In this document: in pieces, positions 1-32,000 of the stretch | Layout of the letters: each line of letters begins with the position of its first letter | Numbering within the stretch: the first letter of the stretch is position 1 | Assembly (NCBI GenBank): GCA_963806635.1 | Contig: CAWDZA010000002.1 | Span: 68,048-100,047, forward strand | DNA length: 32,000 nucleotides | Direction: 5' to 3' | From: an uncultured Chloroflexia bacterium | GTDB taxonomy: Bacteria > Chloroflexota > Anaerolineae > Anaerolineales > Anaerolineaceae | Notes under the pieces: generated by a model | Databases searched by the model: none | Told to the model about the DNA's origin: nothing | What the model saw: the letters and a program-made list of their open reading frames with translations, nothing else | Program-made: the position numbers and the translations under genes

Positions 1-2274
1 CCGCGGAACTTGCCGAAAAATATCTGGCTCCGCTTTCCGCCTTCATCGACCTGATGCTCCCGCCCGGTCTCAGCCAGCATGCGGATACGCTCTATTCGCG
101 TAATCCCGGCGTGGATGCGACAGTCGTGAACCCCACGCAAAAGCGCATCCTTGGGGAGATCGAAAAACGCGGACCTCTGCGTGGCAGGCAGCTGGATGCC
201 GCCATTCCTCGGGTGGATTGGCGCCCCTCCGCCGCCGCCCTGGTGAAGGCTGGAGTACTCATCACCCAGCCGGTGCTGCCCCCGCCCGCTGTGCGCCCCA
301 AGGTGGTGCGCACGGCGCAGCTTTCCCGCCCGTTGGAGCAGGCACACCAGATGGTGGAGGATGAGCCCAGGATGGCCGCAGCAGTTCGCGCACGCAGGCT
401 CTCAGCGCTGGAATTCCTGTCCCGCGAGGCAGTCCCGGTGAGCGTTTCCTGGGTGTATGCCGCGAGCGGCACGAAGCTGGCAGATCTGGAAAAACTGGCG
501 GAACTTGGGCTGGTGCAGCTCGGAGAAACCGAGATCTGGCGTGATCCGCTGCGCGATTTGGTGGCTCCTGTCTTTGATCCTCCGGTGCTCACCCGCGCCC
601 AGGAGGAAGCCCTGGAAAAGACCGACCGCGGATTGGAAAACGCCTCCCGCGGAGGCACCCCCAAACCCGCTCTTCTGCACGGCGTGACCGGCTCGGGTAA
701 AACTGAGATCTATCTCAAAGCCATTGAGCATACCCTGGCAAAGGGCAAACAGGCGATCGTGCTTGTACCCGAGATCGCCCTCACGCCGCAAACGGTGCGC
801 CGGCTGCTCGCCCGCTTTCCGGGCAGGGTGGGGCTGATCCATTCCCGGCTCTCCCCCGGCGAGCGTTTCGATACCTGGCGGCGCGCGCGGGATGGCGCCC
901 TGGATGTGATCCTGGGTCCGCGCAGCGCGCTTTTCACCCCCCTGCCCAACCTCGGGTTGATCGTGGTGGACGAATGCCACGAAGGCTCCTACTACCAGGA
1001 TGATCTCCCTCCCTTTTACCACGCGGTGGATGCCGCCCTGGCACTTGCCCGTCTCACGAAATCCGTGATCATTCTGGGGTCAGCCACCCCCTCTGTGGAG
1101 ATGGTGCAGCAGGCCAACCTGGAAGGTTGGGAGCGCCTGGAACTACCCAATCGCCTGCTTGCTCACCGGGCGGCGATCACCGGGGAATTGCAGGCGATGA
1201 AGAAAGAACTGCCCGCTCTCGCTTACGATCAGGACGCTATCACGCTGCCAATGCCCCCGGTCTCCATCATTGATATGCGTACGGAACTGAAGGAAGGCAA
1301 CCGTTCGGTCCTCAGCCGCGCGCTGCAGGTGGAGCTTGGCGCGGTGCTGGAGCGGGGTGAACAGGCTATCCTCTTCCTCAACCGGCGCGGGTCGGCAACC
1401 TATGTCTTCTGCCGGGAGTGCGGCGCACCATCTGCGTTGCCCGCGCTGCGAGCGGCCACTCACCTGGCATGAAGATACCGCCAGGCTGACCTGCCATTCC
1501 TGCGGATACACCCGCCAGATGCCGCAGAGCTGCCCCGTGTGCGGCAGCCGGGAGATCCGCCAGTATGGCACCGGAACACAGGCGGTGGAGAAATTGGTTC
1601 AGGAACTCTTTCCAACCGCGCGCACCCTGCGCTGGGATTGGGAAACAACCCGGCAGAAGGGCGCGAACGAGATGATCCTTTCGCACTTTGCCAACCACCG
1701 CGCCGATATCCTGATCGGCACCCAACTGCTGGCCAAGGGGTTGGATCTGCCGCTGGTGACATTGGTGGGGGTGATCCTGGCGGATGTGGGTCTGAACTTT
1801 CCGGATTTCCGCGCCGCCGAACGCACGTTTCAACTGCTCACCCAGGTGGCCGGGCGCGCGGGGCGCAGCCCGCTGGGCGGCAGGGTGATCTTCCAGACCT
1901 TCCAGCCGGAGAATTACGCCATCCAATCCGCCGCGCTGCACGATTTCAACGGCTTTTTTCACCAGGAACTGGGCTTCCGCCGGGACCTGGGGTATCCGCC
2001 ATTTACCAACCTTGTAAAGGTGGAATTTCGCGAGCTGGATGCGGGAAAGGCTGAGAAAAACGCGCGGAATTTCGCCGCGCAGGCGCGGGTGTGGATCGAG
2101 GAGGGCGGCTTCAAGGCGACCGAGCTGATCGGCCCAGTTCCGTGTTTTTTCTCGAAGGAGGGCGGCTATTACCGCTGGCAGGTGATCCTGAAAGGCCCCA
2201 ACCCGGCAGGAATCCTCCGGGGCAAGCCGCTGGGGGATGCCAGGGTGGTTGTGGATCCGCCCAGCCTGTTGTAG
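1..2274 (+). pseudogene. priA: primosomal protein N' (PriA replication-restart helicase); 5'-partial at window edge; one frame break near 1422-1427
   Basis: The frame of ORF 54..1472 stays open back to base 3 (AELAEKYLAPL...), so the gene starts upstream of the window. It has Walker A 'GVTGSGKTEIY', 'VVDECHE' and 'FLNRRG'. The Cys-rich zinc region continues in ORF 1336..2274 ('RCPRCERPLTWHEDTARLTCHSCGYTRQMPQSCPVCGS...GTGTQAVEKL'). Removing one base in GGCGCA (1422-1427) gives CRECGHHLRCPRC, the C-x2-C-x5-C-x2-C spacing typical of PriA. Confidence 0.9.
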
Positions 2275-2405: not shown

Positions 2406-4915
2406 TTATGCCGGCTCCGCCACCTTCTCGCGCTTGACCTTCACCTTTTTCTTCTTTGTCAGGATGATCTCCCCGGCTTTATCCAGGTCGATCCAGATGA
2501 TATCCCCATCCACGAACTCGCCGGCCAGCAGTTTATCCGAAAGGGCATCCTCGATCTTCTGCTGGATCACGCGCCGCAGCGGACGCGCGCCCATTTCGGG
2601 GTCGTAACCCTCATCCGCCAGCTTATTCAAGAGCCTCATCGGTGGCTTCCAGGGTCAGGTTGTGCTCAGCCAGGCGGTCGGAAACCTTCTTCAATTCCAG
2701 GGTCACGATCTCGCGGATCTGCTCGCGATTGAGGGCATGGAAGACGATGACCGAATCCAGGCGGTTGAGGAACTCGGGGCGGAAGACCTTTTTGAGCGAA
2801 TCCAGCAGGGTCTTGCGCATGTCGTCGTACTTCTGCTGCTCCTCGATGGCTTCATCGCGGGTGAGCTGAAAGCCGAGCGAGCCCTGCCTGCGGATCTCCT
2901 CCGCGCCGATGTTGGTGGTCATCACGATGATCGCGTTGCGGAAATCCACCTTGCGCCCCTTGGCATCCGAAAGATGCCCCTCCTCCATGATCTGCAGGAG
3001 CATGTTGTGCGCCTCGGGGTGGGCTTTCTCCACCTCGTCGAACACGACGATGGAATAGGGCTTGCGGCGGATGGCTTCGGTGAGCTGACCGGCTTCATCA
3101 TAGCCGACATAGCCAGGAGGCGCGCCCACCAGGCGGCTGACGGTGTGACGCTCCATGAACTCGGACATATCCAGCTGGATCATCGCGTCTTCGCTGCCGA
3201 AGAGGAAACGGGCCAGGGTCTTGGTCAGCTCGGTCTTGCCCACGCCGGTGGGACCCAGGAAGATGAAGGAGCCGATGGGGCGCTTGGGATCTTTGAGCCC
3301 GGCGCGCCCGCGCCGCACGGCTTTGGAGATGGCCTGGATGGCTTCCTCCTGCCCGACGATGGAGGTGCGCAGCTCATCTTCCATGTGCAGCAGGCGCTCG
3401 GATTCGGCGGTGGCCATCTGCATCACGGGCACGCCGGTCCACATGGAAACCACCTCGGCGATATCGTCGGCGGTGACCACGGGGCTGGTGGAGCGTTCCC
3501 AGGTGGTGCGCATTTTTTCCAGCTGAGCGTTGATGCTGCTTTCCCGGGTCAGCAGTGCCTGGGCTTCATCCAGCCGGCCATCTTCCACCGCGGTGGTGTG
3601 GCTCTGGCGCACTTCGCGCAGCTGGGTCATCAGGTCCTTCTGGGCTTTGGCCTGCGGGGATTTATACATGCGCACCCGCGAGGAGGATTCATCGATCAGG
3701 TCGATGGCCTTATCCGGCAGGAAGCGGTCGTTGACGTAGCGGGCGGAAAGGCGCGCGGCGGCTTCGAGGGCTGCATCGGAGATCACCAGGCGGTGGTGCT
3801 CTTCGTAGGGGGTGCGGATGCCGCGCAGGATCTGGATGGTCTCCTCCACGGTGGGTTCATTGACCATGATGGGCTGGAAGCGGCGCTCGAGGGCGGCGTC
3901 GCTTTCGATATTCTTGCGGTATTCATCGATGGTGGTGGCGCCGATCACCTGCAGCTCGCCGCGGGAAAGGGCGGGCTTGAGGATGTTGGCGGCATCCACC
4001 GAGGAACCGGCAGAACCGGCACCCACCAGCATGTGGACTTCATCGATGAAGAGGATGGACTTGGTGGCTTTGAGCTCGTCGATCACGCGCTTGAGGCGCT
4101 CTTCGAACTGACCGCGGTACATGGTGCCCGCCACCAGCGAGCCGACATCCAATTGAAGGACGCGCTTATTCGACGAGCGGCCCGGGGACATCCCCGGCGA
4201 TGATGCGCTGGGCGAGCCCTTCGATGATGGCGGTCTTGCCCACGCCGGGTTCGCCGATGAGGGCGGGGTTATTTTTGGTGCGGCGGGCCAGCACCTGGAT
4301 GACGCGCTCGATCTCCATCTGGCGCCCGATCACGGGGTCCAGCTTGCCTTCCTCGGCCTTGCCGGTCAGATCCGTGGCAAGCTGATCGACCAGGGGGGTT
4401 TTATCCTTCTTGCCGGATTCCGGTTTCTGCTGGGCGGTCTTATCCCCGCTGGCGGTGGTGGCACTGCCTGCCAGGCTGTTTTCGTTGAGCACGCGGTAGG
4501 TCTGGCGCCGGATCTGCTCCTGGGTGACGCCCAGCTTGCGCAGCACTTCCTGCCCGGCATCCTTGGTGGAATGGGTGAGGGCCAGCAGGAGGTGCTCGGT
4601 GCTGATGTATTGATTGCCCATGCGGCGGGCTTCCTCGATGGCCAGCTCCAGCAGCTCCTGCGTGCCGGGGGAAAGATCGATCTTGCCCTCGCGCTGCTCG
4701 CCATATCCGCCGATGCGCTCGACCATCTCCCGCACGCGGTCGGTCTCCAGTCCCAGGTCGCGCAGGACGCGCGAGGCGATGCCTTCCTCCTCCTCGATCA
4801 AACCCATCAGCACATGCTCTGTGCCGATGAAAGGCTGGCGAAAGCTTTCAGCAGCCTGGTGGGCCAGGCTGAGGACGTGGCGGGCGCGTTGGGTGAAGCG
4901 TTCCATTCCGGGCAA
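2406..4915 (-). pseudogene. clpC: ATP-dependent Clp protease ATP-binding subunit ClpC (class III AAA+), split into 3 ORFs by two frame breaks (~4171 and ~2623-2640)
   Basis: ORF 4166..4915 carries the Clp_N repeats and the first Walker A '[10 protein letters not shown]'. ORF 2623..4191 carries the rest of AAA-1, the middle domain and AAA-2 ('GPTGVGKTELTK', 'VVFDEVEKAH'). ORF 2406..2639 carries the C-terminal 'GYDPEMGARPLRRVIQ'. At junction 1, reading GDVPGPLV then [10 protein letters not shown] matches the VPxxLxxKRV spacing if one base near 4171 is dropped. An AGGAGG lies 8 nt upstream of a TTG start at 4915; an alternative ATG is at 4906. Confidence 0.9.
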
Positions 4916-5635: not shown

Positions 5636-6796
5636 CTATATCTTCCCCACAAAACGCTCGATCCTGCGTAGCGCTTCCTCGATTTGGTCGTAGGCGGTGG
5701 CGTAGGAGCAGCGCACGAACCCCTCACCCCCCGCGCCGAAGGAATTGCCCGGCACCACGGCAACGTGTTCCTCCTGCAGCAGGCGGTGGGCGAATTCCTC
5801 GTCATCCAGCCCGGTGACCGAGACCTTCGGGAAGGCGTAAAACGCGCCGTGCGGCTCCACGGTGGGCAGACCGATGCGGTTCAGCCCATCCACGATCAGC
5901 CTCCTGCGCCGGTCGTATTCGGCGTGCATCTCCTTCACGTAGGGCTCACCGCTCTTCAGGGCTTCCTCCGCGGCGGCCTGAGCCGTGGTGGGGGCAGACA
6001 TGACCATATACTGGTGCACCCGTACCAACCCCTTGATGATCTCGGCGGGTCCGGCGGCATAGCCGATGCGCCAGCCGGTCATGGCGTAATCCTTCGAAAA
6101 GCCCCCCAGCAGCACGGTGCGGCTGCGCATGCCCGGCAGGGTGGGGAAGCAGACGTGCTCCACCCCGTAGACCAGGCGGTCGTAGATCTCGTCGGAGAGC
6201 ACCACCAGGTCGTGTTCCTCGGCGATGCGGGCGATCTGCAGCAGGCTTTCGCGGCTGGCCACCGCCCCGGTGGGGTTGCAGGGGAAGCCGAGCAGGATGG
6301 CTTTGCTGCGCGCGGAAACTGCTTTGGAGATATCGGCGGGATCTACATCGAAGTTATTCTCAAACCGGCAGGGCACCTCCACCGCCGCGCCGCCCGCCAT
6401 GATGGCGGAAGCCTGGTAGCTGACGAAGCAGGGGGTGGGGATGATCATCTCGTCGCCCGGGTCCAGCAGGGCGATGGCGCACAGGTTCAGCGCCTCCGAG
6501 CCGCCCACGGTGATGACGATCTCGGTGGCGGGGTCGTAGGTGACCCCGTAGAGCTTTTTGAGGTGCGCCGAAAGCGCCTGGCGCAGGGGGAGCGTGCCGA
6601 AATTGGAGGTGTAGTGGGTCTCGTTGCGCTGCAGCGAGCGGATGCCGGCCTGCAGGACTGGCTCGGGGGTGTTGAAATCCGGCTCGCCGATGCCCAGCGA
6701 GATCACTTCCTTCATGGTGGCGGCGATATCAAAGAACTTGCGGATGCCGGAGGGCCTGAGCCCGGCGATGCGGCGGGCGATGTATTGTTCGCGCAT
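5636..6796 (-). CDS. pyridoxal-phosphate-dependent aminotransferase, class I/II (aspartate/alanine aminotransferase-like)
   Basis: 386 aa with 'GFPCNPTGAV' and the PLP-lysine context 'GGFSKDYAMTGWRIGY'. The ATG at 6796 is preceded by AGGAG. The length is typical of the family. Confidence 0.9.
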   Translation of the reverse strand: MREQYIARRIAGLRPSGIRKFFDIAATMKEVISLGIGEPDFNTPEPVLQAGIRSLQRNETHYTSNFGTLPLRQALSAHLKKLYGVTYDPATEIVITVGGSEALNLCAIALLDPGDEMIIPTPCFVSYQASAIMAGGAAVEVPCRFENNFDVDPADISKAVSARSKAILLGFPCNPTGAVASRESLLQIARIAEEHDLVVLSDEIYDRLVYGVEHVCFPTLPGMRSRTVLLGGFSKDYAMTGWRIGYAAGPAEIIKGLVRVHQYMVMSAPTTAQAAAEEALKSGEPYVKEMHAEYDRRRRLIVDGLNRIGLPTVEPHGAFYAFPKVSVTGLDDEEFAHRLLQEEHVAVVPGNSFGAGGEGFVRCSYATAYDQIEEALRRIERFVGKI

Positions 6797-9712: not shown

Positions 9713-9718
9713 TTACCC

Positions 9719-11129
9719 ATGCCCAAAGTCCATACCCGCTTCGTCTGCCAGCAGTGCGGCAAGGTGACCTCCAAATCCTTCGGACGCTGCCCGCAGTGCG
9801 GGTCCTATGCTTCGATGGTGGAAGAGGTGGTCACGGCTCCAGCCACCTCGGCAAGAACGGGTAATTCCGCTCAGCCTGGTAAACGAATCCCCCAAGAGCC
9901 TGGCGGAGATCACCGGCGACGCGGAAGAGCGCTTTGCCCTGCCGATTGCCGAGTTCGCCCGCGTGCTGGGCGGCGGCATCGTGCCCGGCTCCATCGTGCT
10001 GGTGGGCGGCGATCCCGGGATCGGCAAATCCACCCTGCTGCTGCAGATGGCGCATGGAGGTGGCGCCCGCTGGGGAAGGTGCTGTACGTCTCCGGCGAGG
10101 AATCGGTGCGCCAGATCAAGATGCGCGCCCTGCGGCTGATGCGCGAGGAAGGCGGAGCGCAAGGGGGCGATTCCCCGAACCTGCTGCTGCTGACCGAGAC
10201 CAACCTGGATGTCATCCTGCAGCACACCGCCGAGGTGAACCCGACCTTCCTGATCATCGATTCGATCCAGACCGTTTACCTGCCGGAAATGACCTCCTCG
10301 GCCGGATCGGTCGGGCAGGTGCGCGAGTGCGCCTCGCGGCTGCGCGAGCTGGCCAAAGCCAGCGGCATCGCGGTGTTCCTGGTCGGGCACGTCACCAAGG
10401 AAGGCACCATCGCCGGGCCGCGGGTGCTGGAGCACATCGTCGATACCGTCCTCTACCTGGAGGGCGACCGCTACCAATCCTACCGGCTGCTGCGCTCGGT
10501 GAAGAACCGCTTTGGCGCCACCGCCGAGGTGGGCGTTTTTGAGATGCGCGAGAACGGCATGATCGAGGTCAGCAATCCCTCCGAGGCCTTCCTGGCCGAG
10601 CGTATGGTGAACGCCCCCGGCAGCGCCATCGCGGTGACGATGGAGGGCACCCGCCCGCTGCTGGTGGAGATCCAGGGGCTGACCAGCCCCTCGAACCTGG
10701 GCAATCCGCGCCGCACCCCCAACGGGGTGGATTTCAACCGCCTGCTGCTTGTCACGGCTGTGCTGGCCCGGCGGGCGCACCTGAAGATCTGACGACGCGG
10801 ACGTGTTCGTCAATGTGGTCGGCGGATTGCGCATCGACGAGCCGGCAGCCGACCTGGCCGTGGCGGCGGCGATCGCCTCCTCCGTCAAGGATGCACCGGT
10901 GAAGGCCGATACGGTGCTGATCGGCGAGATCGGTCTTTCGGGCGAGCTGCGCTGGGTGAGCCAGATGAATGCCCGCCTGAACGAGGCGGTCAAACTTGGT
11001 TTCAAGAGCGCGGTGATCCCGCGCAGGATCAAACACGGGGAAAAGCTGCCCCCCGGAATTCAGATCATCGAAGCCCGCTCGGTGCGGGAAGCCCTGGAAT
11101 GGGCATTGAAAGGCGGAGAAAATGAATGA
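9719..11129 (+). pseudogene. radA: DNA repair protein RadA/Sms, three frame breaks (~9830-9890, ~10055-10080, ~10785-10790)
   Basis: Frame 1 holds the N-terminal zinc ribbon '[22 protein letters not shown]'. ORF 9807..10139 holds '[50 protein letters not shown]' (Walker A). The sequence returns to frame 1 for '[19 protein letters not shown]...KNRFG' and then stops at 10790. ORF 10803..11129 holds the Lon-like C-terminal domain 'DVFVNVVGGLRIDEPAADLAVAAAIASS'. Confidence 0.9.
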
Positions 11130-11643
11130 ACGCATCTTGCCGGTTGTGTTGAGCGCGGCGCGGACCACCCGGCTGAACCATGCCCTCGAGCATGCTACGT
11201 TGAACGTCCTTTCCCGGCTGGGAGTGCAGGCCAGGCTCGGGGGATATTCTGAAAAGGACGGGTTTTTCATCCTCGGCTCCATTGATTCGCAGGTGCTTAA
11301 GACTGCCGTGGACCAGGCTTACGAGCGACTGCTGCATGGCGAACCCTGGCTGGCCATCCACGAAAAATGCGGGACGAACTACGTGGCGGCCGGCGCGGTG
11401 GCCGGGTTTGCCGCCTGGCTGGGGATGCTCGGCGTGGGCAGTGGCTGGCGGCAAAAGGCCGATCGTCTGCCGATGGTGATGCTGCTCGTCACGATTTCGA
11501 CGATCCTAGCACAACCTCTGGGACCATTTTTACAGAAAGAGCTGACCACCGACCCGCGTGTGGATGCCATCCGGGTGGTTTCGATCACCCGCTACGACCG
11601 CGGCGCGCTGGTGGTGCACCGTATTCGCACGGCAAGAATCTGA
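11122..11643 (+). CDS. conserved hypothetical protein (two predicted TM helices; 'NHALEHAT' and 'HEKCGTN' motifs)
   Basis: 173 aa. Its ATG overlaps the radA stop (ATGA at 11122-11129), suggesting translational coupling. Hydrophobic segments are 'YVAAGAVAGFAAWLGMLGV' and 'LPMVMLLVTISTILAQPLG'. I recognise no family with confidence. Confidence 0.5.
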   Translation: MNERILPVVLSAARTTRLNHALEHATLNVLSRLGVQARLGGYSEKDGFFILGSIDSQVLKTAVDQAYERLLHGEPWLAIHEKCGTNYVAAGAVAGFAAWLGMLGVGSGWRQKADRLPMVMLLVTISTILAQPLGPFLQKELTTDPRVDAIRVVSITRYDRGALVVHRIRTARI

Positions 11644-15831: not shown

Positions 15832-18139
15832 TCACTTTCCCCCTGCCAGGAACATCGTTTTTCCGTCCGTGGTCACCACCAACTGCCCGTTGTCCGCAAC
15901 TTGTATCCAGGAATTGTCTGGCGCGGGCTGCACAGTGTCGTACCAGAGGATCCCCAGGGCAGGCAACGAGTTCCACTCCGCTGGAGGAGAAGCCACCAGG
16001 TCGTTTTTTCCCAGAAGGACGAGTGAAGGAGGGGAGCGGCGCGCACTTTCTTTTAATTCCTGCGGAGAAAAACCACCCGGCAGGAGCAGAGAGAAATTTT
16101 CGTAATCGAATACCAGCGCGGTACCGCTTTCGCCGGAGGCGAGCACCCTCAGGACCAGTCCGGGTTCGAGCTGATAGGTCTGTCCTGCTTCCAGGACGCT
16201 GCTCTTTGCGCCATCCTGCCGCAGGGTTGATTCCAGGCTGCGGGTGGCAGAATTGGCCGGGACAGCCCCGCCCCACAGGACGTTGTTCACCTGCACCTGC
16301 TCGGCGAGGAACGGCAAGCCGGCAAGGGGGCTGGCCTGGGCGTCAGTCAGGATCAACCCGTCCAGCCGGCGCTCGAAGGGGGAGAGCCGCGCATCCACCC
16401 GGGCGGTCAGCTCGCGCCCGTTGGCGGCGCCATTGATCAGGTAGGCCTGCCCACGCGGGGTGAGGATCAGGACCGCATGGCTGTTATCCAACCCTGGCAG
16501 CAGGATATGCAACCTGCCATCCGGCCGGGAGGCAGCTTCCATCCAGGCGGCCAGGGCAGCAATGCCGCAGATGGTGAGCAGAATGGCCGGTTTTGCCTGC
16601 GCTGGGAACCGCTTTGCGAGGAGATAGAGCCCTGCAGCCAGCGCCAGCAGCACAACGATCCACACGAAACCAGACTCGGATACTTTGAACGCCCCACCAA
16701 GATCGGAAAACGCTTCCACGATGCTTATCGTGTAGGTCAGCGGAACCAGGGCGAACCATCCCAGCAGGGAGCCCAGCGGCAAATAGATCATTCCACCAAC
16801 CATCGCCGCTGCACCCAGCATCATCACCAGCGGCTGGGCAGGAAGGATCAGTGGGTTGGCGAGGATGGCGCTCAGCGAGATCTGGTGGAAGTGCCAGGCC
16901 ATCAGCGGCAGGGTGGCGATCTGGGCGGCAAGCGTCAGCAGAACGTATTCTCCCACCGGCACTGCGATCCCACGCGCCTTCCCCGGAGGCATCCGTTTTT
17001 CCAGCCAGGCAGAGAACCAGTGAAGCAGACGGGTTACCCAGGACGATCAGCCCCAGGGTGGCGGTGAACGAAAGCTGAAAGCTGACATCCCAGAGCAGGT
17101 AGGGATCGAAGAGGCACATTACCGCGGCGGTGAGGACCAGGGTGTTCAGCCCTGATCCGCGCCGCCCGATCTGCATGCCCAGGATGGCCATGGCGCCCAT
17201 AATGGCTGCCCTCATCACCGCCGGCTCCATGCCTACCAGCAGGGAGTAGAGAAAGACCGCGATGATCGAGAATATCGCTGCTTTCCAGCGCGAGGTAAAG
17301 AGCCGCAGCGCCCAGAATACGAAAGCTGAGACGATGGCGATATTGAATCCGGAGATGGCGATGATGTGGGCGGTACCGGTCTGCTGGAAAGCGTTGGTGA
17401 GGTCATCGGGGAGATCTTGATCCAAACCGAGCAGGATACCATTCAGCAGCGCTGCTTGCGGCTGGGGCAGGATCTGGTTGATGACTGTGTAGCCCCGCAG
17501 ACGGAGAGAATATAGAGCGACGATGAGCGGGTTACCGTGCCCGTGTGACAATACTTCGATTTTGGGAAAGGCGACCAGGGTCTGGATGCCCTGGCGGGCG
17601 AGATATTCGCGGTAGGAGAAGGTCTCATCCTCAGGCGGGGTCTGCGGCTCTCCGGTGATCCTGAGCATGTCGCCATACTTGACCTCCGTTCCGGGCCGGG
17701 TTTGCACCTGGATCCTGCCGGAAGAGGGGGCGATTCCGGCTCCTTCCGACACGACATCGGCTTTGAATGAGGTTGTTTTCCCATTCGTTGTTGGCAGACT
17801 GGTGACGACTGCCGAGAAAGTTATCCCGCCGCGGTCATTTTGAGAAGCGATATGGTCAGGAGAAAATGAAGTAGTTTGGACAGGGTATCGCCATGCGCCC
17901 AGGGCTAGCGCGGCCAATAGATACTGCGAAGCGGAAGAGGGACTGATTCTGCGCCAGGATTGGAGCAGGTGCACACGGGCGGTGAAGCGCTTTTCCAGCA
18001 CCGCGAGAAGCGCACTGAGGATGAAAATTACAAATAGAACAGGTTTGGGAATGGTGCTGACGCTGCCCAGCCAGATGCCTGCGAGGAATGCTGTGGAGAG
18101 CCAGAGCAGGGGCATGGGGATATTATAAATAAGGCTCAA
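15832..18139 (-). pseudogene. comEC: ComEC/Rec2 DNA internalization channel protein, one frame break (~17033-17048); C-terminal MBL-like domain degenerate
   Basis: ORF 16484..18139 holds the N-terminal TM/OB-like part (DUF4131-like) and the competence domain ('GTAHIIAISGFNIAIV', 'SFQLSFTATLG'). The true continuation 'VTRLLHWFSAWLEKRMPPGKARGIAVPVGEYVLLTLAAQIATLPLMAWHF...' is in the frame of ORF 15832..16992. Confidence 0.85.
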
Positions 18140-19784: not shown

Positions 19785-20507
19785 TTAAAGATTCAACAGG
19801 ACATAAAAGCATGTGAACCAGGTTGCGAGAACTCCGGGAACTTGCTGTGAGGGCGGGGTGGTGAAACTTTGGCGGATGGGCACCAACCCTTTCGAAGGAC
19901 TCGGAATTTTGCTTTCATGAGTGGTGCCATCCCAGCGAATAACCACATCTTCCAGGCGGGAATCCCCGGTAAAAAAGAGCTCAGCCAGGCTGCCAGTTTT
20001 GCCCATCCAACGCAATGCGCCTGCACCGGGCCCCTGAAATAGCATGCCTTTACCCGAGGTCTGCCAATTGCCTTCCAATTGGAACTGTTTGAACCCCACA
20101 TCTCCTAGGCTGGTTGTGAACCAGTTCAGGGTGATCTCGCGGCCTGCAATTTCACCCCCACTTGAAGCGGGGATGGAAATTACCAGGGTGTGAGTTTCGA
20201 GAAGGCGAATCGGGGTTGGTGGCTTTGCCACAAGGACGAGCACATATCCACAAAGCGCAGAGATTAGCAGGAGCAGGCTGGAGAGCCATCGCGGCTGAAG
20301 ACGGAAGCGGGGCAGCAGAAAATGCCCCACCACAAGGTAATTAACCGGACACAGGACCACCCATAGAATAACTGCAAAAATCAATTCCCGCTTGCTGACC
20401 GCAGGGGTCTGGATGAAGTAGAGGTACGCGCTAAAGGTTATCGCCAGGCTGATCAACGCGGCCAGGATGCCCAGACCGATTCGCTCTGGAGATAGACGAA
20501 TTTTCAT
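19785..20507 (-). CDS. membrane protein: 3 TM + ~110-aa beta-rich extracytoplasmic domain + C-terminal TM; paralog of the N-terminus of the upstream 720-aa protein
   Basis: 240 aa. Its ATG overlaps the upstream stop (ATGA, 20504-20507). It aligns by eye with residues ~30-250 of ORF 20504..22666, for example 'FIQTPAVSKRELIFAVILWVVLCPVNYLVVGHFLLPRF' vs 'AFQTPLFARREYAFALLLWFLLIPLVYVLLTRFLHPRL'. Confidence 0.65.
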   Translation of the reverse strand: MKIRLSPERIGLGILAALISLAITFSAYLYFIQTPAVSKRELIFAVILWVVLCPVNYLVVGHFLLPRFRLQPRWLSSLLLLISALCGYVLVLVAKPPTPIRLLETHTLVISIPASSGGEIAGREITLNWFTTSLGDVGFKQFQLEGNWQTSGKGMLFQGPGAGALRWMGKTGSLAELFFTGDSRLEDVVIRWDGTTHESKIPSPSKGLVPIRQSFTTPPSQQVPGVLATWFTCFYVLLNL

Positions 20508-22666
20508 TTTTCTGCCCCGGTCTCCTTCCCAGAGTGGTTGTGACCAAAATGGGCAGCAGGGTCGCGGGGAAAAGTGAAAGAGAGGATCAATAACCCCAGG
20601 CTGAATAGACCCACGAGATAAACCCCATATTGATAGCGGAAATCACGCGAGACGTTGATGAATAGCATCACCGCCGATTGCACAGCGGCAGGCAGGAAAA
20701 ATAGAAGAAATCGCGGCTGCCTGGCGCGGTATGCCATCATAGAAGAACAGAACAACCCCAGGTATAAGAATAACGCAGGAGTGAAGAACAGCACGTCCCA
20801 GGGTTTCCGAGAGGCGAAGTCCTTAAGCTTCGCCAGCGGGACGATCCAGGCAGAGAGCAAGCTGTTCTCTTTCAACCCTAGATCATTTGGCTCGATCCAG
20901 GAAACAGTTGCAGCTTCTGTTTTTTCCTGGTTGAGCATACAGTGGTTGGGCACCTCCCACACGAGCGAACTGACGCATACCAGGTGCTGAAGCTCCACTC
21001 CCGGCTCTTTCACAGCCAGATCTGCGAACAAACTCTGTATATCGGCAGCTTTTTCTGTGAAACGCGGCTCGGAGTAGGCTGGCTGGGTCCAGATGGGGAT
21101 ATTGGTACAGCAATCGTAGCTCCATTGATCCAGAGGCAGTATTCCGGATGCCAGGTCTGATTCGGCTGGCGTGAGCGGGCTGCCGGTGGCGATGTGCGCA
21201 GCGATGTGATGGATGAAAACCTGCTGTTTGAAGCCTGCGTTGCGATCCACCTTTAGAAGAGTATAGATCGGTCCCTGAATTAGCAGCCACGTACCTGCAA
21301 TCACACCCACACTGAGCAACACTCTTTTCCATTGATTTCGATAAACGATAGCCAGGACGATCAGGCTCAGAATTGGGACTGGAAGCCCGTTCAACCGGAA
21401 AAGGCTGATGCCCAGACCAACGAGTGTCAGCCAGAGCCAGGAAAAACGCTCACCCAGCCAGGTACCCTTGCTGAAGATGGCTTTCAGGATCATCAGCGAG
21501 AGCAGAAGAAGGCAGATGGAATAGGGGATATCCTTCCAGAGAGAGACAACCATATTCCCATTTACTGGTGAGAGGGCAAATACGAGCGCCAGCCCCCAGC
21601 CAGCCCAGCGCGGCAATCCCTGATCTTCCAGGAGATGGATGCCCCAGGCGACTGTCAGGGCGAGCGCAATGATTTGGAATACGATCACGACCGCAGGAGA
21701 AAACCATAGCCGGGTGAGCAGGATTACCAACAGGGTGTGAACCACCGGGAGCGCGTCGTTGAACTGCCCGCTGATCACCTGCCCCCATTGGCGGATCGAA
21801 TCGGGGGTCATGACGGCTGGGAAAAAGGTAAGCAAGTAGATACCCCACACGGCGATCATGGGCAGGGCATAAAGCAGCCAGAAGCCTTTCTTTGGTTGAA
21901 GTACTGGAGCGGGTTTGATCTGGACACCAGCGAGGAAAATGGTCAGCACCAGGAACAGGAAACCGGCAGTGAGAACAGCCATTAAATTGCTGAAGAGTGT
22001 GCTCATCCAGCTTCCCGGGAACCGGGAGGATGCGATCACCGGTGCGCCAGGCGATTCTGCGGGGTTCAGCGCAGCCAGGTTCCCATCCCAGCCTGCCTGG
22101 ACTTCCGCAATGCCTGGCGAATTGGAAAAAACGAGCGTGGCTGTTTCCCCCGAACGGCCGCTCCAGGTAAGCGAAGCGGGTTCCCCGCCTGTGTGGGTGA
22201 ACCCTGTTTTGGTTCGTTGCCAATCTCCCTTTTGCAAAAATTCTCCGAAACCGATATCGCGCAGGGAGGTCTTCGCGTACTCGAGCGTGACAGCCCGATC
22301 CGCGCTTCCCCCTGGGAGATTTATTTGTAAATGGTGAACCGGCAGCAGGAGAATCGCCTGGGGGGGATGGGTGACCAGGGCGAAAAGGATGCCGACGCCT
22401 GCAGATAAGAGGATCCAATTACGCCTGGCTTTGGGTGAGTATCTGAGGAGACGGGGGTGCAAAAATCGCGTGAGCAAGACATAAACAAGCGGTATTAATA
22501 AGAACCAAAGGAGCAGGGCAAAGGCATATTCGCGCCTGGCGAAAAGGGGAGTTTGAAAAGCCCAAAGATAACCGCTGATTGCCATGCAAAAACCGAGGCT
22601 TACAGCGATCCCCCAATAAAGGAGGTTGTGTTTGTTTTGTAAAGGGATTTGTGCGGATAAATTCAT
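20504..22666 (-). CDS. fusion membrane protein: N-terminal 3TM+beta-domain module joined to a large polytopic (GT-C-like) domain
   Basis: 720 aa. The N-terminal ~215 aa are paralogous to ORF 19785..20507. About 500 aa with many TM segments follow, including a loop motif 'FFPAVMTPDSIRQWGQVISGQFNDALPVVHT' and a soluble insert of about 130 aa. No family is assigned with confidence. Confidence 0.65.
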   Translation of the reverse strand: MNLSAQIPLQNKHNLLYWGIAVSLGFCMAISGYLWAFQTPLFARREYAFALLLWFLLIPLVYVLLTRFLHPRLLRYSPKARRNWILLSAGVGILFALVTHPPQAILLLPVHHLQINLPGGSADRAVTLEYAKTSLRDIGFGEFLQKGDWQRTKTGFTHTGGEPASLTWSGRSGETATLVFSNSPGIAEVQAGWDGNLAALNPAESPGAPVIASSRFPGSWMSTLFSNLMAVLTAGFLFLVLTIFLAGVQIKPAPVLQPKKGFWLLYALPMIAVWGIYLLTFFPAVMTPDSIRQWGQVISGQFNDALPVVHTLLVILLTRLWFSPAVVIVFQIIALALTVAWGIHLLEDQGLPRWAGWGLALVFALSPVNGNMVVSLWKDIPYSICLLLLSLMILKAIFSKGTWLGERFSWLWLTLVGLGISLFRLNGLPVPILSLIVLAIVYRNQWKRVLLSVGVIAGTWLLIQGPIYTLLKVDRNAGFKQQVFIHHIAAHIATGSPLTPAESDLASGILPLDQWSYDCCTNIPIWTQPAYSEPRFTEKAADIQSLFADLAVKEPGVELQHLVCVSSLVWEVPNHCMLNQEKTEAATVSWIEPNDLGLKENSLLSAWIVPLAKLKDFASRKPWDVLFFTPALFLYLGLFCSSMMAYRARQPRFLLFFLPAAVQSAVMLFINVSRDFRYQYGVYLVGLFSLGLLILSFTFPRDPAAHFGHNHSGKETGAEK

Positions 22667-22697
22667 TCAGATTATGTCGGGACTATGTTTGCGAGGT

Positions 22698-24784
22698 TCA
22701 AGGGTTTCCGGTCAACCGTGAGATCATATTTCTGAACTCTGACTTTCCGGCAGATTCAGGGGTGTTTATCTCAATGAATTCCCAGGTGCTTTCCATTAAC
22801 TTAAAATTCGGAGTGTCATCCCTGGCGATACGTAACTTCACAGCCCTATTCATAAGCTCGGTTGCTTTTTGCCACTCCCCGCCCAGGGCGTACGCCAGGA
22901 TGAAGGGCATAAGTTCGGTATCCAGCGAGGTGATAAACCCCTGCCGGAAGATCGCCTTATCTCCCAGCTCCCTCACAGACTGCCAGTCCTGGGTTTGACG
23001 GGCAAGATCGGCCTTCTCGTAATAATAACACCAGCCTCTTTCCGGTCCGGCTCCCAAGTGGATGGCTGACGGGTCGATCGGGTTCTCGGCGTTCCCAGGG
23101 AGGATCGGTTTTAGGCTGGCGAATGGAAGCCAATTCTCCGCCCTGGAGTCCATCGATGGAAATTCCGCCGAGAAATCGGGGTTATACACCTGGGGGCAGT
23201 TCTTCCCGTTGTAATTTAAAAAGATCGTTTTCGATAAGTCGGGTTTGAAATGTGCTGCGATCAAACCCATATCGTCCCTGCCTCTGGATTGATAATCCTC
23301 CAATTGCGACGCGAGCATGATCAGGTAGGGGAAATTGTTGGAGGTGAGATCGGGCGCATACAAGCCAGTTGAAAATATACGACCAGGCAGTGGCCCCATC
23401 CCCGGTGGGCATGTCGTTGGTAAGGATCATGGTGCCCGGTTCCAGACTGGGGATACGGTAGGTAAGATTCCAGAAGAAATTGTTGCGCCTCACGTCCACC
23501 GCCCGTAGCTCGTTGGAGGAAATGAACTGGAGCCCGGCGCTGAGTCCAACCACCGCGCTCAGCACAAGGATCTGTATCCAATAGCGCTTCAGCAATACCT
23601 CGATCAAAAAGGCGACCCACAGGCAGGAGACAAGCAGGAAGGGCAAAAGGTAGCGGGTTTCATACCCGCCCACGCCAGCCGCCAGCCCGACGACAATAAA
23701 TGGGATGCCCCCCAGCAGCCAGGGTACTACGCTCAATCCCATCAGTTGAATTGCAAGTGTCTTGTTCTTCTGATCCGCGGGTGGTTTTGGCAGGTGGTAG
23801 GCGCGCAGCACCAGGAAGGTGATCCCCCCCGTGATGAGCACAACCGATAAATAGACAATCGAGGAAAGCGAGCCCCAATTAATGCGTTCCCAGGTAACCG
23901 AAACGATCTGGGTCCAGGCGCGTACCATCCCCATCCAGAAATACTAATGCGGTCTGCCTGATAAGCAGGAGAATCCCCGCGAACCAATTCTCCCGTAAGG
24001 TGGAAAGCAGGCTGAGTGAGTGGTTGTAGGTCTGGTAGGGGAAAAGGAAAACCCGCCAATATAGTACTGCGCAAAAAGCGATAAAAAATGGCAGGAAATG
24101 AAGAGTGGTTTTTCGAAGCTTCTGTTTGACTGTCAGATCGGTCTCGGAGAGCACAATCCAAATCACAAACGGACGCATCAGTTCCATAAAGAGGAAGTAT
24201 TCCATCGCCAGCATGTTGTAAATGCTGAGCCCGAGCGCCAGGAGATAAAACAGCCAGAATCGTTTCGGATGTCGCAGAGAAAGAACCGTGAAGGTGAGCG
24301 AGAGCAGGAAGATCGCCAGGATGATGTTGCGGTGACCCGTGGTGAGCGCCACGCCGTGCGAGAGATACCCCGGGAAAACCGCGATCAGGATGCTGGCAAA
24401 CACCGCCAGGCGCACGCGCCTTGGCCACAGGTTTTTTACCAACCACCAGCCAGAGAGACTGGTGAGCCAGGGAGCCAGCACCGCAAAGAGCTGCCAGCGC
24501 CAGGGATCGGGTCCCAGCAGGGGCAACAGCACCTGATACAGCGGTGCCAGAAAGGGGCGGTTGGTAACGTGATAATAATTGACCCCCCACGCACCCAGCT
24601 TCTGGTAGATCCAGAGCATGATCCAATCGTCAGCGTAGAACCCGAGCCAGGGGAGCAGAACGCCATAGGCAAGGAAACAAAGCAGCAGGAGGAAAAAGGG
24701 ATGGAACAGCGGATGAGTTGTTACCCTGGTGTACCATCTCCGATTTTCGCCGGCGGTTTCCACCGTTGTGATTTGCTCTGGCAT
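22698..24784 (-). pseudogene. GT-C-type membrane glycosyltransferase-like protein with C-terminal helical-repeat domain; two frame breaks (~23880-23945 and ~23350-23400)
   Basis: Three consecutive ORFs (23879..24784, 23182..23934, 22698..23399) read as one protein. It has an N-terminal 'LPWLGFYADDWIMLWIYQ' acidic loop after TM1 and many TM helices. The tail is soluble ('WCYYYEKADLARQTQDWQSVRELGDKA...ILAYALGGEWQKATELMNRAV'). The continuations across both junctions are hydrophobic and collinear. Confidence 0.7.
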
Positions 24785-28502: not shown

Positions 28503-30101
28503 TCATTTCTCCTGGATGGTCACCGAAAGGATCGTATCCGCGGTGGGCAGAGTGCCGCCCTGGGAAGGATCGCGTTTGGTGAGCGCGTTGACCACGTCCA
28601 TACCCTCCACCACCCGGCCAAAGATGGTGTAATTGCCATCCAGGTTGGGCTGTGGGGCGAGGGTAATAAAGAACTGCGAACCATTCGTTCCGGAACCTGA
28701 ATTAGCCATGCCCAGAACGCCGGCGGCGTCAAACTTGAGATCAGGGCTGATCTCATCCCCGAACTGGTAGCCCGGTCCGCCCAGGCCCGTGCCGGTGGGG
28801 TCGCCCGTCTGGGCAACGAAGCCATCCAGCACACGGTGGAAGGGCACGCCATCGAACCATTTATTTTGGGCCAGGAATACCAGGCTGTTGACGGTGAGCG
28901 GGGCCTGCTTCGCAAAAAGCTCCACCACGATATCACCCTTGGTGGTCTGGATGGTGGCAGTATATTGCTTATTGGGGTCGACCACCATCGGCGGGCATTC
29001 CTTATATGACTTCTGCTCCAGTTTCCAAATATTCAGAACGGCATCCAGGTTTTCCTTGCTCAGTCCGATGGAATCGTTTGGATCCACGTTCACGGCAAAG
29101 ACAAGTTTGCCGCCCATTTCAATGAAGACGGAAGGCGTGGCGTTGACGCCCACATTCCCCGCCGCGGTGCGGAACTCTTCCACTTTCTTGACCATGGCAT
29201 CGCTTGTGAGGTCTTTGGTGAACTGCTCTGCATCCAGTCCAATTTCACCTGCTTTTCCAATGACCCAGGTCTGAAAGTCCTCGGGGGTCATCGCAGCCCA
29301 GGTCTGCCAGGTATCCGGGTTGAAGAGCACGTCGTGCATCTCCCAGAATTTACCTTGCAGGGAGGCTGCTTCGGCCGCCTGGAGGGCGATGGCGGATTTA
29401 TCGTGGCTGAGAGGGAAGTGCCGGTAAACGAAGCGGACGTCGTTGGGGTTGTCTTTGATGAATTGCTCCATCACGGGAGCAAGCTGGGCGCAGTACGGTC
29501 AGGTAAAGTCTGAATATTCGATGATGGTCATCACCGCATCTGCAGGACCTTTAACATAGTCCGTGCTGCTGACGGGCGGCAGTTTGGCAGCGTACTCCGT
29601 TTTCTCGGGTGGGAAGATCGAGGTGGCTGGCAGGCATTCACCAGGTTTGGCACCCACGATCTCCGGCACGGCCGTGGCAGCGGAGGGGGTTAATTCATTT
29701 CCGGCTGACTCCACCTGGGTGGTGCTCGCGCTGTTCTGGCTGCCGATGGGCAGGAATCTGCCCGCCAGCCCCGCGCCAACGATCAGCAGCAGGACAACAA
29801 CTCCGCCGAGCACATACAGCCAGGTGCGGTTCTTTGGTTTTTGCGCCGTTCCGGGAACTTCGTCAGGCGTTTTTACGCTCTTATCCGCTGCATAGCGGTC
29901 GTAATCCGCCCGGCGGGTTTTATCGGAAAGCACCTGGTAGGCTTCCTCGATGGCGGCAAAGTCCTTTTCCGCCTTGTCTTTCTGGGCGGGGTCCTCGAAT
30001 TTATCGGGGTGGAATGCCTGAAGGAGGAACTGGTAGCGCTCCTCAATTTCCTTTTTGCTCGCGTTCTTTGGGACACCAATAATATCGTAATAATCTTTCA
30101 T
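28503..30101 (-). CDS. J-domain / TM / DsbA-like thioredoxin-fold / cyclophilin PPIase fusion protein, interrupted by one in-frame TGA (29499-29501) at the first Cys position of CxxC; candidate selenoprotein, otherwise a nonsense-disrupted gene
   Basis: ORFs 29499..30188 and 28503..29474 share a frame (996 nt apart) and are separated only by TGA. The sequence reads ...[11 protein letters not shown]-[TGA][30 protein letters not shown]...[12 protein letters not shown], one continuous DsbA-type domain with U/C-P-Y-C. The N-terminus '[10 protein letters not shown]...FHPDKF...YQVLSD' is a J domain with HPD, followed by the TM '[21 protein letters not shown]'. The C-terminus is cyclophilin ('[15 protein letters not shown]...[17 protein letters not shown]...IFGRVV'). 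The ATG at 30101 has GAGAGG upstream, 4 nt after the tmk stop. Confidence 0.6.
29463..29501 (-). other. in-frame UGA plus downstream hairpin (candidate bacterial SECIS)
   Basis: The mRNA reads UGA-CCGUACUGCGCCCAGC-UUGCUCC-CGUGAU-GGAGCAA. A 7-bp perfect stem starts 16 nt after UGA. The 6-nt loop has G at its second position and starts after 23 nt. Confidence 0.4.
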
Positions 30102-30105
30102 ATAT

Positions 30106-30735
30106 CTACCTCTCTTGGATTGCCGGCAGGCGGGAATCGACCGCCGCACGAATTTGGGATTGTACCACACTGCTTTCGTGGGCGGCATCGATGACCACCC
30201 AGCGCTGAGGCGCTTCCGCGGCCAGCTTCAAGTAACCGGCGCGCACCCGCTGGTGCAGCTCCAGCTGGTAATCGTCCATACGGTTCCATTCACCTCCGCC
30301 GCTTTTGCGGCGTTTCAAGCCCTGCTCGGCGTCTATATCCAACAACAGGGTCAGATCGGGAACGAGGCCCCCTGTGGCGAAATTCAGTATCTGGCGCAGC
30401 TGATCCAGGTCGTTGCCATGCCCGTAGCCCTGGTAAGCCAGGGTGGAATCGGCGTAGCGGTCGGAGATGACCACCTCGCCTTTTTCCAGATGAGGGCGAA
30501 TCACTTCGGCCACAAGTTGGGCGCGGGCAGAGCAGAAGAGCAGGGTTTCGGTGCGCGGATCCATGCCCTGGTTGCGCATGTTCATCAGGATCTCCCGCAC
30601 CTGGTCGCTGATCTCGGTACCCCCCGGTTCGCGGGTGGTAAGGACGGTGTACCCCTGCGAGCGTAGATGATCTGCCAGGGGCAGCATCTGGCTGGTCTTT
30701 CCGCTTCCATCGGGGCCTTCAAGAGTAATGAACAT
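30106..30735 (-). CDS. tmk: thymidylate kinase (dTMP kinase)
   Basis: Has 'MFITLEGPDGSGKTSQ' (P-loop), 'DRYADST' and 'PDLTLLLD'. I prefer the ATG at 30735; the ORF track's upstream extension to 30828 has no homology-like sequence. Confidence 0.9.
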   Translation of the reverse strand: MFITLEGPDGSGKTSQMLPLADHLRSQGYTVLTTREPGGTEISDQVREILMNMRNQGMDPRTETLLFCSARAQLVAEVIRPHLEKGEVVISDRYADSTLAYQGYGHGNDLDQLRQILNFATGGLVPDLTLLLDIDAEQGLKRRKSGGGEWNRMDDYQLELHQRVRAGYLKLAAEAPQRWVVIDAAHESSVVQSQIRAAVDSRLPAIQER

Positions 30736-30862
30736 ATCTATTTTTCGTTTCGCAGAGGCGCAGGGGAGGGAAAAAGCGTGCAGGCGAAGCATGGAAATGC
30801 AAGGTAGAGTACCATTCTGCTTCGGCAATCGTGTTTTAATCTTTGCATCTCTACGTTAACCA

Positions 30863-32000
30863 TCAATCTTTAAATATCCGCACCCGCCGGTTGGGATCCT
30901 TGCCGTAGGAATGCGAAACGAGCTCCGCCTGGCGGGCCAGGTCGTGCTGCAGGCGGCGGACGGAGGGTGTTGCGGGTGGCAGGTCCACAAAGCGCTGCCC
31001 GTTGAGCACCGCCTGGATGGCAGCCTGGGTCTGCTCGGCGGCGGATTCGTAATCACCATTCACATATCCGCCGGAGGGCAGGTTGAAAAGCTCGCCCAGG
31101 GCCTGTTCCATCTGGGTGACGGTGTTGGCGCGCAGGACGTAGATCGGTGACGCCGCGGGCTTCGGCTTCCAGGATCACCTGCTGGCGGTTGCGGTAGTAG
31201 GTGCGCAGGGTGATGAGCACCTCGGCATCGCCGGGCTCGCGGGTGATGATGGCCGGCACGCCCATGCGTTTGGCAGCCTGCAGCAGGCGGTTGCGTGCCA
31301 CCCCGTAGGGATAAATACGGATCGCGGGCAGCGCGGAGAGTTCCGGCGGATACTGCTCGCCATTGGTCACTTCCTCGCGGCGGCGAGGTTCGCGATCGGT
31401 GGAAAGCGGGGTACCCTCCACCCGCAAAGGTGCGGCGCTGCCCCTGCACAGCCTGGCGCTGGATGGGCGGGGTGGAGGCTTTTTCGGTGTGGATGCCGCC
31501 TTCGGCATCCCGCGAGCGGATCTCGGGGTGCAGCGGGTAGCCGCGCACCAGTTCATCCACCGCTTCGGCCACATCGTGGATGAACGACCAGCCGGTCGCG
31601 TTCCTGGATCTCGACCAGCACGTCGAAGGTGGGCGGGGCGCGGCGCTCGAGGACGGTCTTCTGCGTGCCGCGGCGGCGGGCTTCTTCATCAGAAAGGGTC
31701 ACGGATTCGATCCCGCCGATCAGGTCGGAGAGGGTGGGGTTGAGGAGCAGGTTTTCGAGGGTGCGTCCGTGGGCGGTGGCCACAAGCTGCACACCGCGCT
31801 CGGCGATGGTGCGGGCAGCCAGGGCTTCCAGCTCGCGCCCGATCTCATCGATGACGATCACCTCGGGGTTGTGGTTCTCGACTGCCTCGATCATCACCTC
31901 ATGCTGCAGGGTGGGCAGTGCGCACCTGCATGCGGCGCGCGCGTCCCACGGCCGGGTGGGGCACATCGCCATCCCCGCCGATCTCGTTGGAGGTATCCAC
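30863..32000 (-). pseudogene. R3H-domain AAA ATPase (ycf45/SpoIIIAA-like), 5'-partial at window edge; at least four frame breaks (~31917-31926, ~31588-31602, ~31430-31460, ~31146-31152)
   Basis: The minus strand from 32000 gives '[26 protein letters not shown]'. It then changes frame to '[51 protein letters not shown]...[11 protein letters not shown]'. Further frame changes give '[24 protein letters not shown]', then 'IRIYPYGVARNRLLQAAKRMGVPAIITREPGDAEVLITLRTYYRN', then the R3H end 'PIYVLRANTVTQMEQALGELF...RRLQHDLARQAELVSHSYGKDPNRRVRIF'. Confidence 0.8.

Follow-up and report, generated by a model that had tools for sequence, protein, structure and literature searches.

The window analysed here, 32,000 nts in length, corresponds to positions 68,048 to 100,047 of contig CAWDZA010000002.1 (assembly GCA_963806635.1) from an uncultured Anaerolineaceae bacterium of the Chloroflexota, and carries on its minus strand a gene whose reading frame contains a candidate selenocysteine (Sec) codon. 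The gene occupies positions 28503-30101 and consists of a single frame of 532 codons, which runs from an ATG (30099-30101), located just after a purine-rich ribosome-binding stretch, to a TGA terminator (28503-28505). The sole interruption of this frame is another TGA, at 29499-29501, and the program-made list of open reading frames (ORFs) places the two resulting ORFs (29499-30188 and 28503-29474) in one shared frame. In public databases, the gene is split into a 200-amino acid (aa) “CbpA” and a 322-aa “cyclophilin”.

When the TGA is read through, the complete coding sequence (CDS) yields a protein with four recognizable parts. The N-terminus is a J domain, predicted to be cytoplasmic (residues 3-68, positions 29898-30095, minus strand), which matches PF00226 over its full length with 65.4 bits and retains an intact HPD tripeptide (H31-P32-D33 in the translation). 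None of the DnaJ/CbpA equivalog models matches this J-domain protein in full, all of them scoring far below their cut-offs. The J domain is followed by a single transmembrane (TM) helix predicted from the sequence at approximately residues 94-114 (29760-29822, minus strand) and preceded by K/K/R, which, by the positive-inside rule, implies a topology with the N-terminus inside and the C-terminus outside. The third part is a DsbA-like thioredoxin-fold domain (residues 180-335, positions 29097-29564, minus strand), delimited by Pfam and by invariant alignment columns, which is recognized by both Thioredoxin_4 (PF13462, 70.5 bits for a cut-off of 23.2) and DSBA (PF01323, 58.7 bits for a cut-off of 25.6) and includes a T-P loop (T322-P323) conserved among homologues. 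The C-terminus is a cyclophilin-type peptidyl-prolyl isomerase (PPIase; residues 383-527, positions 28521-28955, minus strand), which matches positions 3-157 of the 159 positions of PF00160 with 145.3 bits.

The TGA at 29499-29501, which directly follows the residues IIEYSDFT in the translation, corresponds to residue 201, i.e., the first (nucleophilic) position of a U-P-Y-C motif, where homologues have TGC or TGT. The resolving Cys204 of this UxxC motif is encoded by a TGC (29490-29492, minus strand), and a Cys is present at this position in every TGA form. U-P-Y-C aligns with the C-P-Y-C of the solved structure 3gyk and of the Cys homologues, which would place UxxC at the start of helix α1. 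A first-pass annotation, made from the sequence alone, had claimed that two same-frame ORFs are parted only by this TGA, that reading through it gives one uninterrupted DsbA/thioredoxin-fold domain, and that the codon falls on the first Cys of the CxxC motif. All three claims were borne out, by the minus-strand translation and the ORF list, by the continuous Pfam domain and by the alignment with Cys homologues, respectively.

Homologues were searched among 5.8 billion proteins. The ten closest in the databases (75-99% identity, with one at 61%) are fragments of 318-322 aa starting at the Met right after the TGA, and more distant homologues (≤61% identity) are full-length single polypeptides with Cys. 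In clusters at 90% identity, the upstream product is 200 aa long in 18 out of 18 members and the downstream product is 322 aa long in 18 out of 18. In the DNA, approximately 20 distinct orthologues from independent metagenomes or metagenome-assembled genomes (MAGs) have TGA at exactly the same codon and are interleaved with homologues having TGC or TGT, so that orthologues carry either TGA or a Cys codon at this position. The TGA forms, referred to below as Sec forms, are found in the window and in the collected loci L001/L002, L003, L005, L008, L016, L086-L090, L093, L094, L096-L098, L103, L114, L116, L120 and L164. They include two JGI contigs (L001/L002) encoding a protein 89% identical to that of the window, a more distant locus (L003) whose protein is 61% identical and has a different N-terminus, at least three named MAGs (Chloroflexota JAADGN01, Anaerolineales DASQQR01 and Anaerolineaceae CAYLPS01) and 14 further metagenome contigs. 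Across 74 Cys forms, the TGA aligns with the TGC or TGT of the first CxxC Cys.

The Sec forms diverge down to 49% amino acid identity among themselves, with intact ORFs on both sides of the TGA. This speaks against the refuting case named in the first-pass annotation, in which the TGA would be accompanied by a decaying gene, as proteins of 49-63% identity keep the TGA with both ORFs open. Comparison of the window with L001 gave dN/dS values of 0.19 upstream and 0.15 downstream of the TGA, showing that both halves of the gene are under purifying selection. In a neighbour-joining tree, Sec and Cys forms are interleaved (e.g., L003 with L084, L005 with L013 and L116 with L121). Because of this interleaving, the tree would imply repeated switches between Sec and Cys within the Anaerolineae and not a single event.

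Downstream of the UGA, the mRNA can form a hairpin at 29463-29482 (minus strand), in which UUGCUCC (29476-29482) pairs with GGAGCAA (29463-29469) to give a perfect 7-bp stem closed by the hexaloop CGUGAU (29470-29475). The stem begins 16 nts and the loop 23 nts after the UGA, and the hairpin encodes L-A-P-V-M-E-Q. These coordinates agree with those of the first-pass annotation, which had further proposed that the spacing and loop composition fit descriptions of the bacterial selenocysteine insertion sequence (bSECIS). The published bSECIS model comprises an apical loop of 3-9 nts, a stem of 4-16 bp, a G as the first or second loop nt, with G or U usually next, a UGA-to-loop distance of 16-37 nts, and a minimum free energy (MFE) of -7.5 kcal/mol or lower (PMC13188914). 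The window hairpin lies within this model on every point, with a 6-nt loop, a 7-bp stem, a G at loop position 2 followed by U, a distance of 23 nts and an energy of -9.9 kcal/mol. Folded alone, it has a z-score of -4.4 and none of 200 shuffled sequences was equally stable, while the stability of the surrounding 81-nt region is ordinary (z = -0.5).

Covariation was assessed in a gapless alignment of 19 distinct TGA forms. In this alignment, 96.2% of the cells at the seven proposed pairs hold a standard pair, versus 26-58% when the 3′ arm is slid by 1-3 nts. Double compensatory changes occur in three of the seven pairs (U-A to C-G, U-A to G-C in six sequences, and C-G to U-A), and the covariation score was reached by none of 500 column shuffles; the co-variation raised in the first-pass annotation as a possible check is thus observed. 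Some of the compensations come with an amino acid replacement, a Glu to Ala change (GAG to GCG) being paired with a silent GCU to GCG change, which is what RNA constraint laid over a coding sequence would be expected to look like. In addition, synonymous sites are saturated within the L086-L094 cluster and the 20-nt hairpin is nonetheless identical.

The hairpin also separates the two kinds of orthologues. When it was counted as present with at least six of the seven pairs in a fixed register, it was found in 17 of the 18 unique Sec forms versus 0 of the 74 Cys forms, in which at most five pairs form and the paired run counted from the loop does not exceed four. Likewise, Sec forms obtain 68 bits or more and Cys forms 35 bits or less with a covariance model, which also recovered an extra TGA form (L098) with a further compensatory variant. 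The MFE of 52-nt segments differs weakly between Sec and Cys forms (p = 0.018). The discriminating analyses are fixed-register pairing and covariation, whole-region folding being uninformative.

One of the Sec-form orthologues lies next to a component of the selenocysteine machinery. In L116, ARAGORN predicts a tRNA-Sec at 1556-1648 (minus strand), 1.5 kb from the TGA of the orthologue (L116:3168), and this prediction was confirmed by the Rfam family RF01852 (71.2 bits for a gathering score of 47). It is the only tRNA-Sec found by ARAGORN over all collected loci. The tRNA-Sec gene is flanked by genes encoding an M50 peptidase and a metallophosphoesterase, upstream of the orthologue, and a second, stand-alone cyclophilin gene (4130-4765) follows the selenoprotein gene in this locus. 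Single-cell genomes of Anaerolineales were reported to encode SelB and, for some of them, Sec-containing formate dehydrogenases, and SelB was likewise reported for Anaerolinea thermophila (PMC4959059). From this, we infer that the window's own organism is competent for Sec insertion.

Taken together, the alternation of TGA and Cys codons, the selection on both halves of the gene, the conserved covarying hairpin and the tRNA-Sec beside the L116 orthologue support the selenocysteine interpretation of the first-pass annotation. The in-frame TGA at 29499-29501 very probably is a real selenocysteine codon in a membrane-anchored folding enzyme, and comparative sequence evidence makes it highly likely that the window encodes one 532-residue selenoprotein, organized as J domain–TM–Sec-DsbA–cyclophilin, rather than two genes.

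Several observations weigh against this interpretation. The 32-kb window contains no selA, selB, selC or selD, and no tRNA at all; E. coli SelA, SelB and SelD had no tblastn match in the approximately 2 Mb of collected loci either. No Rfam family matches the hairpin, neither at the gathering threshold over the whole window, where no other Rfam match was obtained, nor at E ≤ 10 over 29380-29560. This last result says little, because Rfam has no general bacterial SECIS model. The stem is short (7 bp), and the covariation rests on few independent events in related sequences. Furthermore, a single TGA form (L120) does not have the hairpin in the register of the others. Its corresponding segment (6061-6120, encoding UPYCGQLAPLLRRL) offers only a shifted GCGCCG/CGGCGU hairpin with the loop CUGCUC, whose first two nts include no G; L120 could carry a different SECIS variant or be a decaying copy. 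Finally, the window assembly is error-prone, with several housekeeping genes frameshifted.

Among alternative explanations, the one that survives best, although very unlikely, is that the TGA is a true stop and that two proteins are made, i.e., a 200-aa J-domain membrane protein and a 322-aa cytoplasmic fragment with the cyclophilin, initiated at a GTG or ATG in the hairpin loop, in which case the hairpin would have a role in regulation or translational coupling. Gene callers do annotate two genes, and among the 19 aligned TGA forms, 18 conserve the loop GTG, which is followed by ATG or another start-like codon. However, the downstream product would be deprived of strand β1, of the whole CxxC motif and of an export signal, so that its thioredoxin fold would be broken and located in the wrong compartment, and the upstream product would stop one residue short of the active site; in other Sec forms, this upstream piece is merely a signal peptide with a linker. 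The nine codons that separate the TGA from the presumed restart site also speak against initiation in the loop, as they are conserved as amino acids, always with the Pro and the second Cys, and vary synonymously (CCG/CCT/CCC/CCA, TAC/TAT and TGC/TGT). Because the codons vary in this way while the amino acids stay, the stretch from the TGA to the hairpin must be translated. In addition, the Cys-form homologues are single polypeptides.

Reading of the UGA as a standard amino acid instead of Sec (Trp or Cys by near-cognate decoding, or through a reassigned code) would by itself also account for the conservation of the frame and for the purifying selection on both sides of the codon. It is nevertheless less probable still, since the codon coincides exactly with the catalytic Cys position at which known UxxC families have Sec, the conserved hairpin agrees with the model of SelB-dependent SECIS elements, the L116 orthologue is linked to a tRNA-Sec, and Trp at residue 201 would inactivate the motif. 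A reassigned genetic code was considered separately and rejected, the gene and its neighbours terminating with TGA; because the gene's own terminator is TGA, the code is taken as standard.

The explanation with the least probability left, namely that a nonsense substitution or sequencing error turned the TGC or TGT of a Cys-type DsbA gene into TGA and created a pseudogene or an artefact, could draw on the single base change needed and on the many frameshift breaks in essential genes of this assembly, but is effectively refuted by the comparative data, i.e., by the occurrence of TGA in approximately 20 distinct sequences, whose samples and assemblers are independent, by the open and selected halves of the gene, by the uniform 200-aa/322-aa split and by the nature of the other defects of the window, which are indels and not substitutions. 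The first-pass annotation had itself cautioned that a base-call error could explain the TGA, a caveat which is excluded by L164, an independent assembly of slightly different DNA that encodes an identical C-terminal product, shows silent differences nearby and keeps the TGA. Its claim that the other gene disruptions of the window are indels holds, as the breaks in priA, clpC (two), comEC and several unnamed genes shift the reading frame, and only the break in the Sec gene stays in frame. The broken genes are located at 54-2274 (priA), 2480-4915 (clpC/clpB-like, two breaks), 15832-18139 (comEC), 22698-24784 and 31053-31972. Indel errors in a low-coverage or long-read assembly account for these frame breaks better than gene decay does.

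With the TGA taken as a selenocysteine codon, UGA 29499-29501 would be decoded as Sec during translation and the hairpin located 16 nts downstream would act as a bacterial SECIS. By analogy with the established bacterial mechanism, SelB·GTP·Sec-tRNASec would bind the hairpin loop and, competing with RF2, bring Sec to the ribosomal A site. The predicted product is a type-II-like membrane protein with a cytoplasmic J domain, one TM helix and, facing outward, a U-P-Y-C DsbA-like oxidoreductase and a cyclophilin. An extracytoplasmic location of the catalytic domains is supported because other Sec forms replace the J-TM module by a lipoprotein signal peptide, the orthologues L003, L005, L008 and L016 having lipobox-like N-termini. 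Most members of the family have such a lipoprotein signal peptide, in place of which the window protein has its J domain and TM helix (29757-30101, minus strand). The J–TM–DsbA–cyclophilin architecture is also found in two Cys forms, P0085 and P0117 (546 and 577 aa).

Judging from its domains, the protein most likely functions as an extracytoplasmic folding catalyst combining thiol/disulfide (selenenylsulfide) exchange with prolyl isomerization. Compared to Cys, Sec is a more nucleophilic attacking residue with a lower pKa, and its presence would favour fast exchange or isomerase/reductase chemistry. The arrangement of a J domain with a TM helix points to a connection of the extracytoplasmic foldase with DnaK in the cytoplasm. 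A more tentative proposal, which we regard as possible but rather doubtful, is that J–TM–Sec-DsbA–cyclophilin constitutes a previously undescribed trans-membrane folding factor, in which the cytoplasmic J domain would recruit DnaK to the membrane's inner face while the selenol oxidoreductase and PPIase on its outer face would act jointly on emerging exported proteins, and in which the Sec/Cys state would have switched repeatedly in the Anaerolineae, perhaps depending on redox niche or on the availability of selenium. If true, it would be the first known selenoprotein with a prolyl isomerase.

The gene neighbourhood is shared between the window (28503-30828) and L003 (9106-17898), whose protein is 61% identical. 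It comprises, in order, the thymidylate kinase gene tmk, the (Sec)DsbA-cyclophilin gene and a 1-acyl-glycerol-3-phosphate acyltransferase gene, with comEC further on, and the first few bases of the selenoprotein gene lie within the end of tmk. Elsewhere on the minus strand, the window contains long ORFs at 9713-11454 and 19785-24784 (439 aa, 240 aa, 720 aa and a frameshifted series) that have no Pfam match at E ≤ 1e-5. In L001, four consecutive large uncharacterized proteins of approximately 700 aa each, homologous to those of the window, are encoded after the acyltransferase gene. Among the other collected loci, L128 (6052-8100), L141 (4798-6760), L149 (6052-7400) and L153 (1692-2400) contain three or four DsbA-like CPFC motifs on one strand, approximately 640 nts apart. 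These arrays, which lie on unrelated metagenome contigs, correspond to tandem DsbA-domain repeats or tandem genes and are all Cys forms.

In every public copy examined, the gene is annotated as a cyclophilin PPIase preceded by a separate CbpA-like or hypothetical protein, a systematic error that would hide both the selenoprotein and its active site. The present finding leaves the understanding of Sec recoding itself unchanged and would extend the DsbA-like selenoproteins by a clade of extracytoplasmic foldases from Anaerolineae. The compact covarying SECIS (7-bp stem with a CGUGNU loop) could be used to find more Sec genes in Chloroflexota, and the interleaved Sec and Cys orthologues provide a natural comparison set to ask what selenium buys a DsbA-type enzyme.

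DsbA-like selenoproteins of the UxxC type were first described in 2005 from the Sargasso Sea metagenome (PMC1088965) and were included in later surveys (PMC1794560, PMC5029168, PMC13188914). A 2026 review lists both a “DsbA-like protein form 1 (PF01323, UxxC)” and a “DsbG-like protein (NF041057, UxxC)” (PMC13188914). The first-pass annotation was therefore right that such families are already known (PMC1088965, PMC1794560, PMC13188914). Like DsbA-like form 1, the window protein has a DSBA-type fold scoring above the Pfam threshold, a putative Sec at the first position of UxxC where homologues have Cys, and a small SECIS-like hairpin with a loop G just downstream of the UGA. Unlike form 1, which was originally of the COG2761 type, it scores best on Thioredoxin_4 (PF13462), is hosted by Anaerolineae and has its DsbA domain fused to a C-terminal cyclophilin PPIase and, in its lineage, to an N-terminal J domain with a membrane anchor. 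As it passes PF01323, it can be assigned to DsbA-like form 1 in the broad sense.

The best NCBIfam match is NF041057, the “Rcas_1661 family thioredoxin-like (seleno)lipoprotein”, with 75.1 bits over residues 126-325 for a cut-off of 190. This family, named after a protein of Roseiflexus (Chloroflexota), corresponds to the “DsbG-like protein” of the reviews. Both are extracytoplasmic thioredoxin-like UxxC proteins of Chloroflexota, and the other Sec-form orthologues of the window protein are lipoproteins as well. However, NF041057 is a 247-position model that does not include a cyclophilin domain, and the window protein carries, in place of a lipobox, a J domain with a TM helix. Membership in NF041057 was rejected on the basis of the score and of the missing lipobox signal peptide, which makes the window protein a relative and not a member of this family.

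The closest solved relatives are 3gyk, the Corynebacterium DsbA (4pwp/4pwo) and Bacillus BdbD (3eu3), with E-values from 1e-16 to 3e-8. Homology to these DsbA-like oxidases of the Gram-positive/actinobacterial type extends over the whole thioredoxin and helical-insert domain, including C-P-Y-C and the T-P loop. In contrast to the window protein, all of them are Cys proteins, stand-alone, and fused to neither a PPIase nor a J domain. A selenoprotein fused to a PPIase (cyclophilin) or to a J domain is mentioned neither in the text of the 2026 review (PMC13188914) nor in the publications retrieved by full-text literature searches, and the DsbA–cyclophilin/J-domain selenoprotein fusion appears to be undescribed.

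With respect to the recoding signal, the window hairpin is unrelated in sequence to the SECIS elements of E. coli fdhF and fdnG; it consists simply of 7 bp closed by a hexaloop, lacks an evident bulged U and would be bound by SelB. Similar to these elements and to the bSECIS consensus, it is located within the CDS immediately 3′ of the UGA and presents a G-U in its apical loop, with spacing, sizes and energy that lie within the model.

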